Under the pieces are notes generated by a model that made no database searches, was not told the DNA's origin, and saw nothing but the letters and a program-made list of their open reading frames with translations. Both the position numbers and the translations under genes were made by a program. From a virus, in the UHGV virus genome UHGV-0256468: a stretch of 21,977 nt of DNA. One strand, written 5' to 3'. This document shows, piece after piece, positions 12,381-19,824 of the stretch. The first letter of the stretch is position 1; every line of letters starts with the position of its first letter.

Positions 12381-14153
12381 ATGACCATCACCACAGACAC
12401 CACTCTTTTACACGACCCGCGTCGTCAGGCGGCGCTGCTGTACTGGCAGGGATTTTCCGTGCCGCAGATTGCCGCCATGTTGCAGATGAAACGCCCGACG
12501 GTGCAGAGCTGGAAACAGCGCGACGGCTGGGACAGCGTTGCCCCCATCAGCCGTGTCGAAATGAGTCTGGAAGCGCGGCTGACCCAGCTCATCATCAAAC
12601 CGCAGAAAACCGGCGGTGACTTCAAGGAAATTGACCTGCTCGGACGCCAGATTGAACGACTGGCACGGGTAAACCGCTACAGCCAGACCGGCAACGAGGC
12701 AGACCTTAATCCGAACATCGCTAACCGCAACAAAGGCGGGCGGCGCAAACCGAAAAAGAATTTTTTCAGTGACGAGGCTATCGAAAAGCTGGAGCAGATT
12801 TTCTTTGAGCAGTCTTTCGAATATCAGTTGCACTGGTATCGCGCCGGGCTTGAGCACCGCATCCGCGATATCCTGAAATCCCGCCAGATTGGCGCGACGT
12901 TTTATTTTTCCCGCGAGGCGCTGCTGCGCGCCCTGAAAACCGGTCATAACCAGATTTTTCTGTCGGCCAGTAAAACGCAGGCGTATGTGTTCCGCGAATA
13001 CATCATCGCCTTTGCCCGGCTGGTTGACGTTGACCTGACCGGTGACCCGATTGTCCTGGGCAATAACGGCGCAAAACTGATTTTTCTCGGCACCAACTCC
13101 AACACCGCGCAGAGCCATAACGGCGACCTGTACGTCGACGAGATTTTCTGGATACCGAATTTTCAGGTACTGCGTAAGGTGGCATCAGGTATGGCCTCAC
13201 AGAGTCACCTGCGCTCGACCTATTTCTCCACCCCGTCCACGCTGGCGCACGACGCCTACCCGTTCTGGTCGGGTGAACTGTTCAACCGGGGACGCGCCAG
13301 CGCCGCCGAACGCGTGGAAATCGACGTCAGTCATAACGCTCTTGCCGGTGGGCTTCTCTGTGCGGACGGTCAGTGGCGGCAGATTGTCACCATTGAGGAC
13401 GCCCTGAAAGGTGGCTGCACGCTGTTCGACATTGAGCAGCTTAAACGCGAAAACAGCGCCGACGATTTTAAAAACCTGTTCATGTGTGAATTTGTTGACG
13501 ACAAGGCGTCGGTGTTCCCGTTCGAGGAGCTGCAACGCTGCATGGTCGACACGCTGGAAGAATGGGAAGACTATGCGCCGTTTGCCGCGAATCCGTTCGG
13601 CTCCCGCCCGGTCTGGATTGGTTACGACCCGTCACACCGTGGCGACAGTGCCGGATGCGTGGTGCTGGCACCGCCGGTGGTGGCCGGTGGCAAATTCAGA
13701 ATACTTGAGCGTCACCAGTGGAAAGGCATGGACTTTGCCACCCAGGCTGAATCCATCCGCAAACTCACCGAAAAATACAACGTCGAATACATCGGAATTG
13801 ATGCCACCGGCCTCGGTGTCGGCGTGTTCCAGCTCGTTCGCTCGTTCTATCCCGCCGCACGCGATATCCGCTACACGCCGGAAATGAAAACCGCAATGGT
13901 GCTCAAGGCAAAAGACGTTATTCGCCGTGGCTGTCTGGAATATGACGTCAGCGCCACCGACATCACCAGCTCGTTTATGGCTATCCGCAAGACCATGACC
14001 AGCAGCGGACGCAGCGCCACGTATGAGGCCAGCCGCAGCGAGGAAGCCAGCCACGCCGACCTCGCCTGGGCGACCATGCACGCCCTGTTAAATGAGCCAC
14101 TCACCGCCGGTATCAGCACCCCGCTGACATCCACCATTCTGGAGTTTTACTGA
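12381..14153 (+). CDS. P: Terminase large (ATPase) subunit (P2 gpP-like)
   Basis: Start at the MTITTDTTLLHD methionine gives 590 aa, the same length as P2 P. A GAGG ribosome-binding site lies 6 nt upstream. Confidence 0.9.
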   Translation: MTITTDTTLLHDPRRQAALLYWQGFSVPQIAAMLQMKRPTVQSWKQRDGWDSVAPISRVEMSLEARLTQLIIKPQKTGGDFKEIDLLGRQIERLARVNRYSQTGNEADLNPNIANRNKGGRRKPKKNFFSDEAIEKLEQIFFEQSFEYQLHWYRAGLEHRIRDILKSRQIGATFYFSREALLRALKTGHNQIFLSASKTQAYVFREYIIAFARLVDVDLTGDPIVLGNNGAKLIFLGTNSNTAQSHNGDLYVDEIFWIPNFQVLRKVASGMASQSHLRSTYFSTPSTLAHDAYPFWSGELFNRGRASAAERVEIDVSHNALAGGLLCADGQWRQIVTIEDALKGGCTLFDIEQLKRENSADDFKNLFMCEFVDDKASVFPFEELQRCMVDTLEEWEDYAPFAANPFGSRPVWIGYDPSHRGDSAGCVVLAPPVVAGGKFRILERHQWKGMDFATQAESIRKLTEKYNVEYIGIDATGLGVGVFQLVRSFYPAARDIRYTPEMKTAMVLKAKDVIRRGCLEYDVSATDITSSFMAIRKTMTSSGRSATYEASRSEEASHADLAWATMHALLNEPLTAGISTPLTSTILEFY

Positions 14154-15187
14154 TGAGCAAGAAAAAAGGGAAAACACCGCAACCTGCGGCAAAAAAAATG
14201 ACCGCCAGCGCCCCGAAAATGGAGGCATTCACCTTTGGTGAGCCGGTGCCGGTGCTCGACCGCCGTGACATTCTGGATTACGTCGAATGTATCAGTAACG
14301 GCAGATGGTATGAGCCGCCGGTCAGCTTTACCGGTCTGGCAAAAAGCCTGCGTGCTGCCGTGCATCACAGCTCACCGATTTACGTCAAACGCAATATTCT
14401 GGCTTCAACGTTTATTCCGCATCCGTGGCTTTCCCAGCAGGATTTCAGCCGCTTTGTGCTGGATTTTCTGGTGTTCGGCAATGCGTTTCTGGAAAAGCGT
14501 TACAGCACCACCGGTAAGGTCATCAGACTGGAAACCTCACCGGCAAAATATACCCGCCGTGGCGTGGAGGAGGATGTTTACTGGTGGGTGCCGTCCTTCA
14601 ACGAGCCGACAGCCTTCACGCCCGGCTCCGTGTTTCACCTGCTGGAGCCGGATATTAATCAGGAGCTGTACGGCCTGCCGGAATATCTCAGCGCCCTTAA
14701 CTCTGCCTGGCTGAATGAGTCGGCCACGCTGTTCCGCCGCAAGTATTACGAAAACGGCGCTCATGCCGGATACATCATGTACGTCACCGATGCCGTGCAG
14801 GATCGCAACGATATCGAAATGCTTCGCGAAAACATGGTTAAGTCGAAAGGCCGCAATAACTTTAAAAATCTGTTTCTCTATGCCCCGCAGGGGAAAGCCG
14901 ACGGCATTAAAATTATCCCCCTCAGTGAAGTGGCGACGAAGGACGATTTTTTTAATATCAAAAAAGCCAGCGCCGCAGACCTGCTGGACGCGCACCGCAT
15001 CCCCTTTCAGTTGATGGGCGGCAAGCCGGAGAACGTCGGGTCGCTGGGTGATATTGAGAAAGTGGCAAAGGTCTTTGTCCGCAATGAGCTTATCCCGCTA
15101 CAGGACAGGATCCGCGAGATAAACGGCTGGCTCGGTCAGGAGGTCATCCGCTTTAAAAACTACTCACTGGACACTGACAACGGCTGA
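14153..15187 (+). CDS. Q: Portal protein (P2 gpQ-like)
   Basis: 344-aa ORF, same length as P2 Q. Its ATG overlaps the P stop codon (TGATG). Confidence 0.9.
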   Translation: MSKKKGKTPQPAAKKMTASAPKMEAFTFGEPVPVLDRRDILDYVECISNGRWYEPPVSFTGLAKSLRAAVHHSSPIYVKRNILASTFIPHPWLSQQDFSRFVLDFLVFGNAFLEKRYSTTGKVIRLETSPAKYTRRGVEEDVYWWVPSFNEPTAFTPGSVFHLLEPDINQELYGLPEYLSALNSAWLNESATLFRRKYYENGAHAGYIMYVTDAVQDRNDIEMLRENMVKSKGRNNFKNLFLYAPQGKADGIKIIPLSEVATKDDFFNIKKASAADLLDAHRIPFQLMGGKPENVGSLGDIEKVAKVFVRNELIPLQDRIREINGWLGQEVIRFKNYSLDTDNG

Positions 15188-15192
15188 ACATC

Positions 15193-15214
15193 GCCGCCTG
15201 CGGGCGGCTTTTTT
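15193..15214 (+). terminator. Rho-independent terminator of the P-Q operon
   Basis: GCCGCC-TGCG-GGCGGC stem-loop followed by TTTTTT, beginning 6 nt after the Q stop codon. Confidence 0.7.
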
Positions 15215-15349
15215 ACAACCCGTCATCACGGCCTCACACGCTCACCACCGCACAAAACACCCCGCAGACACACCAACGCCCCGGCAGGCCGACTAAATGC
15301 CATCACGACGCGCTCAGACGCAAAAAAACTGTCACTACCACGCCGTTAC

Positions 15350-15374
15350 GTTGGCCACATAAAATGTGGCCAAC
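15350..15374 (-). terminator. Stem-loop at the 3' end of the cargo gene (GTTGGCCACA-TAAAA-TGTGGCCAAC)
   Basis: Perfect 10-bp inverted repeat starting 6 nt downstream of the cargo gene stop codon. There is no immediate U-tract (a T-run follows about 25 nt later), so it may be a terminator or a stabilising hairpin. Confidence 0.4.
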
Positions 15375-15379
15375 TCCAG

Positions 15380-16381
15380 TTATAATAATTTGTCCAGCCT
15401 AGCTGAAACAATACCTAGAACAACTGTTGAAACTATATTTAACACCACTCTTAAAATACTCTTCTTTCGCTTCTTACTATATTCATCATACAACCTCTCA
15501 TCACCCTTATTTAATACAATGTACGATGCTGGAGTATAACCATCAATTAATCTCTCTAGGCCTTCACCTAAATGCTCCGCTAACAATGGGATAATAGAAA
15601 ACGCACCAAGAAAGAGCATTAAAAATTTTACTAACCTTTCTTTATCACCAATATCAATATATTCACCAACATTGTACAGTGCATAACTTAAAATCAATAT
15701 AGAAAAAGAAAACCGCATAATCAGTGGAATTAAATACGATATCCTTTGAGCTTGCTGTATCAATGGTATTTTGTTTGTAACTCTTTGACATCCTTCAACC
15801 CATTCTTTAAATGCTTCGATAAAACCTCTAGCCACTACATAATCAGCATATTCAACAACTATTTCTGCTGAACTGGTGAGCATGAATGCAACAAAACGCC
15901 CCCTAATGAAAGGTGGTGCATCTTCTTCCATTTCTTTCTGCATAGCAATTCTTGATGCTAATTTAACAGTAACTTCATAGTGGTTAGGTAATGATGCCCC
16001 TGTCGATAAAATTGCAAAGTTATATTTTAAAATTACACTAATTGTTGGACTACTTCCCGCACTACTCGACATTGCAAACTTATCAAAAGAGGTAAACTGT
16101 TCCTTTCTATCTTTTGAATGTAAAATAGTTACCGTTTCATTTTTCGATATAATATTATGAACATCACACAATTGATTTATTTTTTGATGAACGCTTCTTA
16201 TCTCATCGATATTTATAAGTAAATTCTCAGAGGTTCTCTGCCTTATTGTTTCTGTTGTTCCCGTTATATGTTGATAAATTTGCTGATAAATACGAATGCT
16301 AGTATTAATATCCCGAGAAGCAGGTAACCCACTATTAACCCCATTATTTTTTTCATTTGACTCATCAATTATAATACTCAT
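15380..16381 (-). CDS. Hypothetical 333-aa protein with an N-terminal soluble domain of about 210 aa and three predicted C-terminal transmembrane helices; candidate anti-phage cargo
   Basis: Long ORF in a conspicuously AT-rich block embedded in GC-rich phage DNA, between portal gene Q and the cos site. Hydrophobic segments lie at about residues 214-236, 251-267 and 308-327. It has its own AT-rich upstream region and a downstream hairpin. I do not recognise the protein. Confidence 0.75.
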   Translation of the reverse strand: MSIIIDESNEKNNGVNSGLPASRDINTSIRIYQQIYQHITGTTETIRQRTSENLLINIDEIRSVHQKINQLCDVHNIISKNETVTILHSKDRKEQFTSFDKFAMSSSAGSSPTISVILKYNFAILSTGASLPNHYEVTVKLASRIAMQKEMEEDAPPFIRGRFVAFMLTSSAEIVVEYADYVVARGFIEAFKEWVEGCQRVTNKIPLIQQAQRISYLIPLIMRFSFSILILSYALYNVGEYIDIGDKERLVKFLMLFLGAFSIIPLLAEHLGEGLERLIDGYTPASYIVLNKGDERLYDEYSKKRKKSILRVVLNIVSTVVLGIVSARLDKLL

Positions 16382-16625
16382 TTTATTTCCTATAAAAACT
16401 TAACCAGCAAATTAAATAAAAAGAACACAAGGTTATTATTTAGCGTGCAACAACACGATTGCACAACCAAATGCCACGTGTACGAATCTAACCATTCTCT
16501 TATATTAAATCAAGTCAATACAACCTAATAGACACATTTTTATCGCAGTTATACACTTGGTTAACAATATGCGGATAGTTACTCAAATCAAATTACATAT
16601 ATGACAAAATGAACAATTGCGCGCA

Positions 16626-16644
16626 GTGCTTTCCCCGCCTCGCC
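16626..16644. other. cos: cos site (19-nt cohesive end)
   Basis: GTGCTTTCCCCGCCTCGCC on the plus strand. Its reverse complement, GGCGAGGCGGGGAAAGCAC, is the P2 cohesive-end sequence as I recall it, and it lies in the expected A-to-Q interval. Confidence 0.8.
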
Positions 16645-17044
16645 CGCCCGCTTCACAGGGCGGTTTTAATGCAGTTGCATAGATACTATGGATCCGCACC
16701 AGTCCTGACCGCACGCAGCCTGAACGGACATCCCCAACGCATGCAAAAACATTCACTTGTTGCATGCATAGCTTTTTAAGTACGCCATACCGCAACTGTA
16801 CATTTTTAAGCAATTGGCAACTTTAAAAAATTTACATTGCTTTCAAGACCTTATCATCCGTAGTCTCTGTTTTTTACTTTGAGCTACATCAATAAAATCT
16901 CAAACATGTTTAATGCAAAGCCCTTGTTACACAACATAGAATGTATGTCTAGAAACAACGACATACTATATGTTGTGTTTTTCCGGCCCTCTGTTCGGTG
17001 ATATGCCAAATCACTTTGCGTTTAAACAGAGCATTATTTCAGGG

Positions 17045-17059
17045 CAAGACTTCGCTCAA
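17045..17059. repeat. Direct repeat copy 1 (CAAGACTTCGCTCAA)
   Basis: 15-nt perfect match to 17309..17323. The two copies bracket the 37-codon ORF and its terminator. Confidence 0.5.
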
Positions 17060-17122
17060 AAGTCATTCCACCTAAGAAGCGCATATACCGGTGGAAGTTG
17101 CCCTCTACTTACAGGAGGCAAT

Positions 17123-17236
17123 ATGAAGAAATGCTATTACTGCATTCTCGTTCTGGCCCTCTTTGGCTATCCAAACGGTAGTCCAAGTGGTTTGTCAGTA
17201 AACGTCAGTAATATCAATGTCAGCATTATGCTTTAA
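17123..17236 (+). CDS. Small hydrophobic protein, 37 aa (MKKCYYCILVLALFGYPNGSPSGLSVNVSNINVSIML)
   Basis: AGGAGG Shine-Dalgarno sequence 4 nt upstream of the ATG, and a strong terminator 12 nt downstream of the stop. The N-terminal half is hydrophobic. The longer 88-aa form in the ORF track begins at an upstream ATG with no ribosome-binding site. Confidence 0.4.
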   Translation: MKKCYYCILVLALFGYPNGSPSGLSVNVSNINVSIML

Positions 17237-17247
17237 TATGCTTCAAA

Positions 17248-17279
17248 CAAAAAAACCACCTGCCAGGGTGGTTTTTTTG
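17248..17279. terminator. Bidirectional rho-independent terminator
   Basis: A-run, then ACCACCTG / CAGGGTGGT stem, then a 7-T run (AAAAAAACCACCTGCCAGGGTGGTTTTTTTG). Confidence 0.75.
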
Positions 17280-17308
17280 CGCCCATCATCAATACGATGA
17301 AAGACTGA

Positions 17309-17323
17309 CAAGACTTCGCTCAA
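17309..17323. repeat. Direct repeat copy 2 (CAAGACTTCGCTCAA)
   Basis: 15-nt perfect match to 17045..17059. Confidence 0.5.
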
Positions 17324-17431
17324 GACGAATTATGCGTCGACATAAGGTTACCCGCAATGATTTTATTAGTCTAAATGGATGGCCTTTTATGACCCGGATC
17401 AAACGGCTGTCCTTACCGACATGCTAGTCAC

Positions 17432-17469
17432 TCAATAGCATTTAGCCTTCTAATTCAGCATGCTATTGA
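17432..17469. promoter_or_regulatory. 10-bp perfect inverted repeat (TCAATAGCAT-N18-ATGCTATTGA) with a third ATGCTA copy just upstream
   Basis: Read directly from the sequence, about 70-110 nt beyond the 3' end of gene A. It could be a protein-binding site or an RNA structure. Confidence 0.25.
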
Positions 17470-17538
17470 CCTTCTGCTGCCCCATAACTGCTCCGCATAA
17501 GCCATTCAATGCCATATCAAATTACGTTGTGTTTTTAC

Positions 17539-19824
17539 TCAAATGGGTAACGAGAACCCCGGCCACTCATCAGCGACCGGATATCTGAATTTTTTCCCGT
17601 CATAATTTACGGTTGCCCCACGCGCCAGCGCCTCAATCTCCCATCGCTGCGGCCTGATACCGTTCTGAGCAAGGTCAACGCGGATACGGGTAATTTGCGT
17701 TCGTTCCGACCGGGTCAGTCTGGCCGATGGCGCTATTTCATGTGGTTTTAACAGGCTTCCGTTTCTCTGCTGACGATTTGGTGTTCTCAGTCCGTGTTTT
17801 AATGCACCTCTGAGCGCCCTCACGACCTCTGGCTCATTCCATTCGATAACACCGTCATCAACCAGATTAAGCACGGCTGTGGCATGTTCAGAAGGTGTGG
17901 GAGCCGGTAACGAAGTATCACCACCGGTGAGCTTTCCACAGTTATTGACAGGACTCCGAGGCGCGGCGATGCCGCTTTTTAAAGTCAAAGGCTCAACGAC
18001 CGGCACTTTCGGAACAATGCGCCAGTCCGTCGTTCTGGTGATATGAATATGACGCGCGCCGAGATGCGGCGCGTAAATGCCGACCACTCTCTCGACTTCT
18101 TCCTCGTACTCGTTAACTTCATCCGACGGACTACGGGCAACCCTGACAGTCTGACAATCGCGCGGAACATTTGCCCCACCCTGCGCGCTGATATACAACG
18201 CAAAATCACCACTGTCTGCGGCAGCGCGTGCAGCCTCGACGCGTTCGTCAAACTCATCAGCAATGCTGACGCCGCGAGGCAATTTGCGTAGTTCACGGTA
18301 AGCCCCCATTGTCGGCAGGCCAACCGTTTTAAATTGCGGAATGCGCCACGTTGACGCCCATGCGGTAACAGCCGCGGCAGTGTCTTTCAGCGGCCTGCCG
18401 GTATCGTTATCGAGCTGACCATCCAGTGCATAGCCATCGATGTTTTTTGAGATGTATTTCGCGATATATCCCGCAGCACCGCCCCGGTTAAGGTGTTTTG
18501 CCTGAAAACGGTTTCGCGCGGCTCCTCTTTCGTCACCATCCTCTTTGAGCGCATAGCGACGCATGATTTCGATAATCTGGTTACGCTGGCGTGGATTACA
18601 AAAAAGCATCATATGCCAGTGCGGCGTTCCGTCGTGGTGTGGCTCGACGACTCGCAAACCGTAGACCTGTAAATCATTATCCTTGAATGCCGTGCGCATC
18701 AGGCTCCAGATGCGGCAGAGATAACGCTGCGCATCCTTTGGATTAAATGCCTCATCATTCCAGCCGTGATTTAGCTGGACGGTTTTACTTTCGCCTTTTC
18801 CGACCTGACGTGTCGGGTGATACTTTGACGGCGCGGTCAGAGTGATAAACATCCCCACATCACCCTCTGCGGCGGCGTAACGCTCAATACCGGCGATGGT
18901 GTTCATCAGCTCCATCCGGCGAATTTCAGGATTAGAAATACTGCCCATCACCTTACTGATAAGGTCGATGCGCTCGCCGGTTTCCCTGTTTTCGAGGTCA
19001 CACGATTTAAGAAATTCCAGATTTGCCTGGCGGCGTGCACGCACATCACGAATGGCATGTTTACTGGCATAAGGAGAACGGTCTTTATTGACCTCCCCGA
19101 CAGCAATCAGTAACGCCTCATGCCAGCGCATACGCTGGCCTTTAAGCTGATGAGTCCACCACTCATCGTTAAACAGACGGGCAATGGCAGAATATGCCTG
19201 CCTCGTGGTCATCTGTCCTTTACGGTATTTTTTCCAGTAGAGAGGGGAAATATTGAAAGCACGTGCAGCGCCAGCAACATGACCATACAGATGCGCCTGC
19301 GCCTCATCTGTAAACAGCGATTCTTTCTCGCCATGTGCATCAACCCATGCATCGCAGAGTTCCTCATACATCATGAAAAGCTGCGATGAGATACGGGCGG
19401 CAAACTTTTTCAGCTCCTTGTCATTCATCCCCGGCAGACGCGCATAATGGTCACGCTCTGCCAGAAACAGCAACGACGCGTCGGTGTTCATTTCATGGCG
19501 CTGATTCACGCGCTCAATACGCGGCCATAAACGGCGCTGAAAAGTGGATGTGAGGAAATAAAACCCGTGCACCGGGCTTTTATTGCGCCGGATGTAGTCA
19601 TAGCGTGAAGTAAACAGCGAGCGCAAAAAGTAAGGCAGGCGATTAATCGTGGATAAAACACCTTGCACCTGACGCATCTCGTCACGTGTAAGGGGTCTTT
19701 CGCGCCCGACGGCCTCGCGTGGCGCGTTCCATGCATAAGCACCGGTAAACGTCTCACCGGTGCCTGCGGCAAATGCTGACGGAGGGACAAAACGCCCGGA
19801 GGCTTTAACGGCCATATGAGCCAA
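17539..19824 (-). CDS. A: Rolling-circle replication initiator (P2 gpA-like)
   Basis: 761-aa ORF, same length as P2 A. It has an HUH-type motif (PHWHMMLF) and a tyrosine pair (GYIAKYISK) typical of rolling-circle initiators. Confidence 0.9.
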   Translation of the reverse strand: MAHMAVKASGRFVPPSAFAAGTGETFTGAYAWNAPREAVGRERPLTRDEMRQVQGVLSTINRLPYFLRSLFTSRYDYIRRNKSPVHGFYFLTSTFQRRLWPRIERVNQRHEMNTDASLLFLAERDHYARLPGMNDKELKKFAARISSQLFMMYEELCDAWVDAHGEKESLFTDEAQAHLYGHVAGAARAFNISPLYWKKYRKGQMTTRQAYSAIARLFNDEWWTHQLKGQRMRWHEALLIAVGEVNKDRSPYASKHAIRDVRARRQANLEFLKSCDLENRETGERIDLISKVMGSISNPEIRRMELMNTIAGIERYAAAEGDVGMFITLTAPSKYHPTRQVGKGESKTVQLNHGWNDEAFNPKDAQRYLCRIWSLMRTAFKDNDLQVYGLRVVEPHHDGTPHWHMMLFCNPRQRNQIIEIMRRYALKEDGDERGAARNRFQAKHLNRGGAAGYIAKYISKNIDGYALDGQLDNDTGRPLKDTAAAVTAWASTWRIPQFKTVGLPTMGAYRELRKLPRGVSIADEFDERVEAARAAADSGDFALYISAQGGANVPRDCQTVRVARSPSDEVNEYEEEVERVVGIYAPHLGARHIHITRTTDWRIVPKVPVVEPLTLKSGIAAPRSPVNNCGKLTGGDTSLPAPTPSEHATAVLNLVDDGVIEWNEPEVVRALRGALKHGLRTPNRQQRNGSLLKPHEIAPSARLTRSERTQITRIRVDLAQNGIRPQRWEIEALARGATVNYDGKKFRYPVADEWPGFSLPI

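Follow-up and report, generated by a model that had tools for sequence, protein, structure and literature searches.

The stretch analyzed here, a 21,977-nucleotide (nt) segment of a P2-like prophage (UHGV virus genome UHGV-0256468; this whole stretch is the window), carries between its portal gene Q and its cos site a single minus-strand gene of foreign composition (15380..16381) that encodes a 333-amino-acid (aa) protein, and the family of this protein is large, well conserved, partner-free, and new to all curated resources. From genomic context and protein architecture we infer, as an evenly balanced proposition, that the gene is stand-alone cargo of the cos-proximal hotspot of P2-family phages and acts as a single-protein anti-phage system of the abortive-infection type; an anti-phage function in the broad sense is rather likely. 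What points to defense is the location in a hotspot, recurrence there, cargo-like behavior, a single-gene organization, neighbors associated with defense and mobility, and a conserved architecture. Within the window the order is terminase gene P, Q, the minus-strand gene, cos, an interval of ~890 base pairs (bp) free of open reading frames (ORFs), and replication gene A, with the following landmarks:

12351/12381-14153, plus strand: terminase gene P (ORF list).
14153..15187, plus strand: portal gene Q, the core gene at the left flank (ORF list; RefSeq annotation of a near-identical prophage).
15193..15208, plus strand: intrinsic terminator of Q, a GC stem followed by TTTTTT (conserved left flank, kept in the empty site).
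~15323..16618, no strand assigned: low-GC inserted block of ~1.29 kb (empty-site alignment with Escherichia coli GD33; GC content).
15380..16381, minus strand: coding sequence of 333 aa, stop codon included, WP_053285577 family (RefSeq: hypothetical protein).
16626..16644, minus strand: cos, identical to the 19-nt cohesive-end sequence of P2, GGCGAGGCGGGGAAAGCAC, the right bound of the sub-locus.
17539..19824, minus strand: replication gene A, the core gene closing the gpA-gpQ hotspot at the right (ORF list; RefSeq).

The original prediction, made from the sequence alone, had described an AT-rich block of roughly 1.3 kb between the Q terminator and cos, at 15346-16625, and both composition and alignment bear this out. 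The GC content is 0.327 for the coding sequence and 0.328 for 15346-16625, against 0.559 for P and Q together and 0.517 for the whole window, and it runs at 0.32-0.39 across 15300-16650, down from 0.52-0.59 in P and Q. Homology with the flanks of a gene-free prophage of E. coli GD33 ends at ~15322 and restarts at ~16619 (GCGCGCAGTGCTTTCCCC...), so that a block of ~1.29 kb, with bounds close to those first proposed, stands in place of ~25 bp. No terminal direct or inverted repeats were seen at the block ends, which rules out a transposon origin, and an Rfam scan of the window gave no match.

This position coincides with a locus already known for its cargo. The gpA-gpQ interval by cos is a P2 defense hotspot from which several cargo systems have been validated (Rousset et al., 2022; PMC9122126), and a 2026 preprint covering 1,511 P2 elements confirmed the hotspot and its rapid swapping of cargo. 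The gene lies between A and Q beside cos, in the interval that the original prediction had linked to the P2 anti-phage genes old and tin; the link to the interval holds, but old and tin lie on the A side of cos and this gene on the Q side. Table S5A of the hotspot study lists WP_053285577 three times as "hypothetical," at one locus beside a DUF4238 gene, and the protein was not among the systems tested there (PMC9122126). That locus list was its only appearance in our literature search, which found it in no main text and found no published phage-resistance test of it, and the family motifs were absent from the portions available of the supplementary sequence tables of Rousset 2022 and Vassallo 2022.

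The same sub-locus is occupied in other genera, as proposed at the outset as a check. In E. coli the identical protein always adjoins the portal gene of a P2-like prophage, and homologs with 39-56% identity occupy the same cos-portal position in P2/186-family prophages of five further genera, making six enterobacterial genera in all: they are found in Yersinia enterocolitica, Klebsiella pneumoniae, Serratia marcescens, and Cronobacter dublinensis, and in Pantoea beside a truncated portal gene. In 7/7 P2-family contexts the cos 19-mer lies on the gene's portal-distal side, 10 to ~600 bp away, which makes the slot specifically cos-portal. Homologs are still intact in decayed prophages, and in a Pantoea dispersa prophage remnant the gene persists 92 nt downstream of a cos-like sequence.

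Within this slot the gene's presence is variable and its composition foreign (GC 0.33 versus 0.56). It occurs in 10 of 5,426 complete E. coli genomes, against an empty Q-cos junction in at least 1,285, and prophage by prophage its GC content (0.33-0.37) falls 13-19 points below that of the portal gene (0.50-0.55). Across prophages, portal proteins are 65-84% identical and terminases 70-88%, whereas the gene is far more diverged and not in parallel: E. coli and Klebsiella share 79% identity in the portal and 41% in the gene, and E. coli and Pantoea 67% and 56%. Because its divergence is out of step with that of the portal, the gene behaves as swapped cargo. Cargo on the gene-A side varies independently in the E. 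coli strains, being a 440-aa protein, an ASCH-domain protein with two others, or, as in this window, nothing.

Further accessory genes were seen in these prophages. Among E. coli prophages with the identical gene, the 440-aa protein on the gene-A side (locus L026, 6274-7596) has no Pfam or PADLOC match, and the ASCH/DUF3850 protein on that side (L028, 5644-7633) is accompanied by unknowns of 94 aa and 305 aa. In Y. enterocolitica prophages (L004/L006, 7728-9548 and L006 17323-19244), an OLD/GajA/AriA-like ATPase-TOPRIM gene lies between the portal gene and the homolog; the homolog is inverted relative to the other prophages, and one variant carries FRG and GmrSD_N genes near the integrase. The K. 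pneumoniae prophage (L008, 19901-21080) has a Pycsar-like pair, PycTM and a guanylate-cyclase-domain protein, after tail gene S, which marks a second slot for cargo within the late region, and the S. marcescens prophage (L034, 87-1418) has a KAP-NTPase gene, PADLOC candidate PDC-S20 (E 9e-158), beside the CI repressor gene.

The family extends well beyond these prophages. A word-index search returned 197 homologs, all of ~331 aa and all unnamed, from Pantoea, Erwinia, Enterobacter, Cronobacter, Serratia, Yersinia, Klebsiella, Plesiomonas, Shewanella, Limnohabitans, Acidovorax, and Parasulfuritortus and from many metagenomes, and an exhaustive profile search returned 1,019 cluster representatives at E <= 0.001 and 283 at E <= 1e-30 from Gamma- and Betaproteobacteria, the family thus comprising about a thousand clusters at 50% identity. 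Nearly all of the 150 representatives listed match over their full length, one with an extra N-terminal extension, so the two-part architecture is evidently passed on as a unit. The earlier failure to place the protein in any recognized family was upheld: its label in every public source is "hypothetical protein," profile searches with Pfam, NCBIfam, and PHROGs gave no significant match, the family profile matched nothing among Protein Data Bank (PDB) sequences, and Foldseek found nothing significant among viral structures. Neither these searches nor one of PADLOC uncovered homology to a known lysis, structural, or housekeeping protein, which had been named as grounds for abandoning the idea of defense. 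A tblastn search of plasmids found one distant family member.

Outside the cos-portal slot, homologs recur in other defense islands, the second setting in which they had been sought. The Limnohabitans gene stands in a toxin-antitoxin and defense island, directly downstream of a gene for a NucC-like PD-(D/E)xK nuclease; that of Acidovorax adjoins an integrase, that of Enterobacter mori lies in an islet with bSEFIR (E 3e-81), and one in Yersinia adjoins an OLD/GajA-like ATPase-TOPRIM gene. In a Shewanella phage-like replicon, a 28%-identical member lies beside a CHAT protein and PDC-M68A/B, near CI/Cro. At 18/18 non-prophage loci, the flanks exceed the gene in GC content by 5-26 points. A scan of 121 neighbor ORFs from 13 environmental genomes, which yields pooled counts and is not a statistical enrichment test, included some matches to restriction-modification, DRT reverse transcriptase, SoFic, and transposase families.

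The gene appears to travel alone. An all-versus-all comparison of neighbor ORFs found no recurring neighbor family across 17 loci, and in the compact Serratia, Cronobacter, and Klebsiella gaps, where cos lies 83-106 nt from the start codon and the gene's stop 45-77 nt from that of the portal gene, no small ORF is conserved and there is too little room for a second ORF. The claim that the block holds one gene therefore stands, and a toxin-antitoxin pair is ruled out, as neither the 17 loci nor the compact prophage loci contain a partner ORF.

Several copies are disrupted. In E. coli H9 (L045, NZ_CP195976.1, 1920-3459), the insertion sequence (IS) IS1A has entered the 3' part of the gene, leaving a 263-aa product without the last hydrophobic helix, a natural truncation. 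Frameshifted or IS-disrupted copies occur in Ectothiorhodospira (L024, 9938-10940), where the family member is split into two ORFs, and in Thauera (L025, 9956-12321), where it is interrupted and two 376-aa ORFs lie nearby; both look inactivated. Occasional inactivation by IS1, frameshift, or IS disruption is what one would expect of an accessory gene that is costly to carry. Two DDE transposase matches also appeared in the pooled Pfam scan of neighbor ORFs, without assignment to specific ORFs.

Hydropathy, structure prediction, and the family alignment divide the protein into the following parts, all on the minus strand:

15767..16312: conserved alpha/beta N-domain, predicted cytoplasmic, residues 24-205; proposed sensor or regulatory module.
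15668..15742: hydrophobic helix 1, residues 214-238, predicted first transmembrane (TM) helix, in to out (Kyte-Doolittle, family profile, positive-inside counts, AlphaFold 206-242).
15569..15637: hydrophobic helix 2, residues 249-271, predicted second TM helix, out to in (AlphaFold, Kyte-Doolittle, family profile).
15464..15568: conserved loop, predicted cytoplasmic, residues 272-306, with a basic KKRKK stretch (family alignment, positive-inside counts).
15395..15463: hydrophobic helix 3, residues 307-329, predicted third TM helix, in to out (AlphaFold, Kyte-Doolittle, family profile).

The Kyte-Doolittle profile places three hydrophobic segments at ~214-238, 249-271, and 307-329, and the AlphaFold model, built with 57 homologs (mean pLDDT 79, pTM 0.68), has a disordered stretch at 1-23, an alpha/beta domain at 25-197, and long helices at 206-242, 247-280, and 292-332. 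Together with the family profile, they agree on the soluble N-terminal region and three C-terminal TM helices that had been predicted, and the C-terminus ends only 4 residues past helix 3. Counted per family sequence, lysine and arginine total 3.9 in the segment leading into helix 1, 0.1 in the short connection from helix 1 to helix 2, and 5.6 in the helix 2-helix 3 loop, which by the positive-inside rule predicts that the N-domain and loop 272-306 face the cytoplasm; only ~10 loop residues and the 4 C-terminal residues are predicted to face the periplasm. This topology, whose prediction had been proposed as a check, would fit the suggested layout of a cytoplasmic sensor joined to a membrane effector. 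The three predicted hydrophobic helices are conserved in position.

Conservation is concentrated in the parts predicted to be cytoplasmic. Mean column conservation is 0.72 in the N-domain and 0.64 in loop 272-306, compared with ~0.45 in the helices, and 30 positions are invariant in the family alignment, many of them polar. They include Y32, Q33, Y36, E44, K67, Q70, R92, K93, T97, Y120, Y135, Y178, Y181, R185, W194, and S215 and, in the loop, E276, D280, S286, Y287, N291, G293, and D294. An NKGD motif at 291-294 was considered as a GTPase G4 motif and dismissed, there being no P-loop and no NTPase fold. The model suggests a TBP-like/AdoMetDC-like fold for the N-domain, and the class to which this fold appears to belong (TBP-like, KA1, SRPBCC) is characteristic of domains that bind small molecules and lipids.

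The regions on either side of the coding sequence contain candidate expression signals:

15350..15374, minus strand: hairpin 5 nt past the stop codon, a perfect 11-bp stem closing a 3-nt loop (RNA fold).
16382..16618, minus strand: AT-rich 5' region of the gene (sequence reading; promoter scan).
16387-16391, minus strand: ribosome-binding site AGGAA, 5 nt upstream of the ATG start of the 333-aa ORF (sequence reading).
16445-16464: inverted repeat GTGCAA-N8-TTGCAC, ~65-85 nt upstream of the start codon (by eye).
16508-16513 and 16485-16490, minus strand: weak promoter-like TTGATT-17-TAGATT (by eye).

The folding energy of the hairpin is -20.2 kcal/mol (z = -3.6), a value that no shuffled sequence among 200 reaches. 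A perfect hairpin after the stop codon had been noted correctly, but its stem is 11 bp and not 10, and it begins 5 nt and not 6 past the stop. Since no U-tract follows, it is not a canonical intrinsic terminator and could be called a terminator only by inference; it may be a transcript-stabilizing element or an atypical termination element. Of the native promoter region that had been assumed, the AT-rich 5' region is present, whereas a scan upstream of the gene for consensus sigma-70 sites (threshold 9/12 matches) found no promoter in the window. The Klebsiella and Cronobacter loci have a near-consensus promoter, TTTACA-18-TATCAT, between cos and the ATG. The inverted repeat could be an operator for a regulator.

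We tentatively propose, as a possibility somewhat short of an even chance, that the protein is the founding, unnamed member of a one-protein immune family in which an alpha/beta domain of a new kind, cytoplasmic and strongly conserved, directly senses a conserved cue of infection and flips a three-helix module to a lethal membrane-permeabilizing state; P2/186 phages would have captured variants of the protein repeatedly, in a slot reserved for them between cos and the portal gene. In the evenly balanced reading as an abortive-infection system, the protein would be made from its own promoter in the lysogen and anchored in the inner membrane by its three C-terminal helices, with the ~180-residue N-domain and the loop between helices 2 and 3 facing the cytoplasm, where together they would keep the helical module inactive. 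On infection, this autoinhibition would be relieved by a conserved trigger, either a phage product or a disturbed host component or small molecule; the freed helices may then oligomerize or rearrange, the membrane would leak, and the infected cell would stop before the competing phage finishes its cycle. As no partner gene recurs at the loci compared, any signal would have to be sensed directly, and the strong conservation of the N-domain suggests that the cue is itself conserved, whether it is a component of the host, some small molecule, or a phage feature that changes little, and is not a fast-evolving phage protein.

Several observations weigh against a defensive function. None of the 5,027 models of PADLOC-DB v2.0.0 contributes a family at E <= 1, so membership of a validated defense system is excluded and not shown, and a tblastn search of 50,697 sequenced phage records came back without a homolog. 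Conservation is higher in the N-domain (0.72) than in the helices (0.45), and the top 150 representatives show no swapping of domains, a pattern atypical for arms-race sensors; the helices contain 1-2 basic residues each and are of moderate hydrophobicity at the family level, so that their constitutive insertion in the membrane is a prediction. The window has no convincing promoter and no canonical terminator for the gene. Some homologs also lie amid housekeeping genes, with neither mobile nor defense neighbors; one stands among fatty-acid metabolism genes, and the 121 ORFs of the pooled environmental scan were mostly ordinary genes.

These settings, together with an N-domain whose strong conservation and many invariant polar residues resemble those of ligand-binding or enzymatic domains, and whose modeled fold class would suit a small-molecule or lipid binder, are what favor the best-surviving alternative, namely that the gene is a non-defense moron that benefits the lysogen otherwise (through envelope stress, transport regulation, or niche adaptation) or a functionless passenger at a recombination-prone site. 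Not all hotspot cargo defends, as some of the cargo tested by Rousset et al. gave no defense (PMC9122126). We nevertheless think this explanation unlikely. It is opposed by repeated, specific placement in a defense hotspot in six genera with a phylogeny incongruent with that of the portal, by defense-gene neighbors in unrelated contexts, and by an extremely patchy distribution with foreign composition everywhere, and strong purifying conservation speaks against a functionless passenger in particular.

Superinfection exclusion, in which an inner-membrane prophage protein blocks DNA entry or an early membrane step and does not kill the cell, is the next to consider and strikes us as doubtful. 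A prophage-encoded, membrane-anchored single gene in a locus of known phage-exclusion genes would suit it, and it would also fit the absence of a recognizable enzymatic effector. The predicted topology disfavors it, however: exclusion calls for a functional part within the membrane or at its periplasmic face, along the path of the entering DNA, whereas here the large conserved regions are predicted to be cytoplasmic and the periplasmic part to be very small. PHROGs and the viral structure library contain no similarity to known exclusion proteins, and the family also occupies non-prophage chromosomal sites in many environmental bacteria.

The tight linkage to cos, found even in prophage remnants, raises the further alternative of a selfish toxin or addiction module, or of a weapon against competitors that share the same cos, such as P4-like satellites and other P2-like phages. 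P2 hotspot systems can indeed act against P2-like relatives (PMC9122126), and the membrane helices could be toxic. An addiction module would nonetheless call for an adjacent antitoxin ORF, of which the 17 loci and the compact loci contain none, and many family members have neither cos nor a P2-like context, which leaves this explanation improbable. An anti-defense or lysis/packaging accessory serving the phage's own lytic cycle is highly improbable: although the gene adjoins the late packaging genes and cos, and membrane proteins do act in lysis, the great majority of P2-like prophages and all of the 50,697 phage records lack it, the window already holds a complete P2 gene set of its own, no holin, spanin, or anti-defense profile matches, the gene is kept in decayed prophages and at non-phage sites, and anti-defense genes occur in only 28 of 1,511 P2 elements (2026 preprint). 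A lysis function as such is ruled out by the gene's location outside the late lysis cluster, the lack of Pfam or PHROGs holin matches, and its rarity among P2-like prophages.

Two further observations concern the rest of the window. The stretch at 16650-17538, ~890 bp from cos to the end of A and the place of old and tin in P2, has no ORF longer than 88 aa, a GC content of 0.41, and no Rfam match; it recurs at >=80% coverage in 149 E. coli genomes (E. coli W among them), where it bears no annotation, and it may represent a hotspot remnant or regulatory spacer. The program-made ORF for terminase P opens at a TTG (600 aa); as the near-identical RefSeq gene encodes 590 aa, the true start is probably an ATG ~30 nt downstream.

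Returning to the proposal of a single-protein abortive-infection system, its consequences would reach beyond this prophage. If the protein is protective, it represents a compact, partner-free defense family missed entirely by PADLOC, Pfam, and NCBIfam, and the portal side of cos is then a second slot of the P2 hotspot, one that is normally empty. One 333-aa protein with a strongly conserved N-domain would be a convenient model for sensor control of a membrane effector, and mutagenesis could draw ready hypotheses from the family's invariant positions, from the topology prediction, and from the IS1-truncated allele found in nature. If it is not protective, the gene is a further example that hotspot location alone fails to predict defense.

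Superinfection-exclusion membrane proteins include P22 SieA, T4 Imm, and HK97 gp15. Like them, the protein is a single small or medium prophage membrane protein that would protect the lysogen; unlike them, it is predicted to be nearly all cytoplasmic, it belongs to a family widespread outside prophages, and PHROGs and viral-structure searches reveal no similarity to them. A parallel in layout is offered by sensor-fused membrane effectors of abortive infection, namely CBASS Cap14 (2TM-SAVED) and Cap15, Pycsar PycTM, SLATT-domain proteins, RexB of lambda, and, from the P4 "hydrolase + 3TM" system, the 3-TM partner, which also combine a soluble cytoplasmic domain with a few membrane helices, likewise have no recognizable enzymatic killing domain, and likewise reside in prophage or defense hotspots. 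The differences are that profile searches detect no homology to Cap14, Cap15, PycTM, SLATT, or RexB, that the order here is an N-terminal soluble domain followed by C-terminal helices, and that the family has no cyclase, RexA-like, or other partner gene at the 17 loci or the compact loci. In the model, the N-domain fold also appears not to be of the SAVED, CARF, or cNMP-binding type; the small alpha+beta domains of the TBP-like/AdoMetDC-like/KA1/SRPBCC kind with which it may be compared are those of the spermine synthase N-domain, prokaryotic S-adenosylmethionine decarboxylase, KA1 lipid-binding domains, and the N-terminal domains of the anti-phage toxin RnlA.

Single-gene hotspot cargo that pairs a soluble domain with membrane helices is a familiar kind, and hotspots of this type hold hundreds of genes that lack tests. 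Although it has no sequence or profile similarity to any P2 hotspot cargo system, the gene occupies the same interval between core genes by cos as P2 old and tin and as the systems validated by Rousset et al., among them a single-gene DUF4238 system and the TIR + 2TM + 1TM system of phage AC1. Like that cargo, it is an AT-rich, stand-alone cassette that is swapped in and out among syntenic prophages, but it takes the portal side of cos, which is normally empty, and not the gene-A side that holds old and tin.

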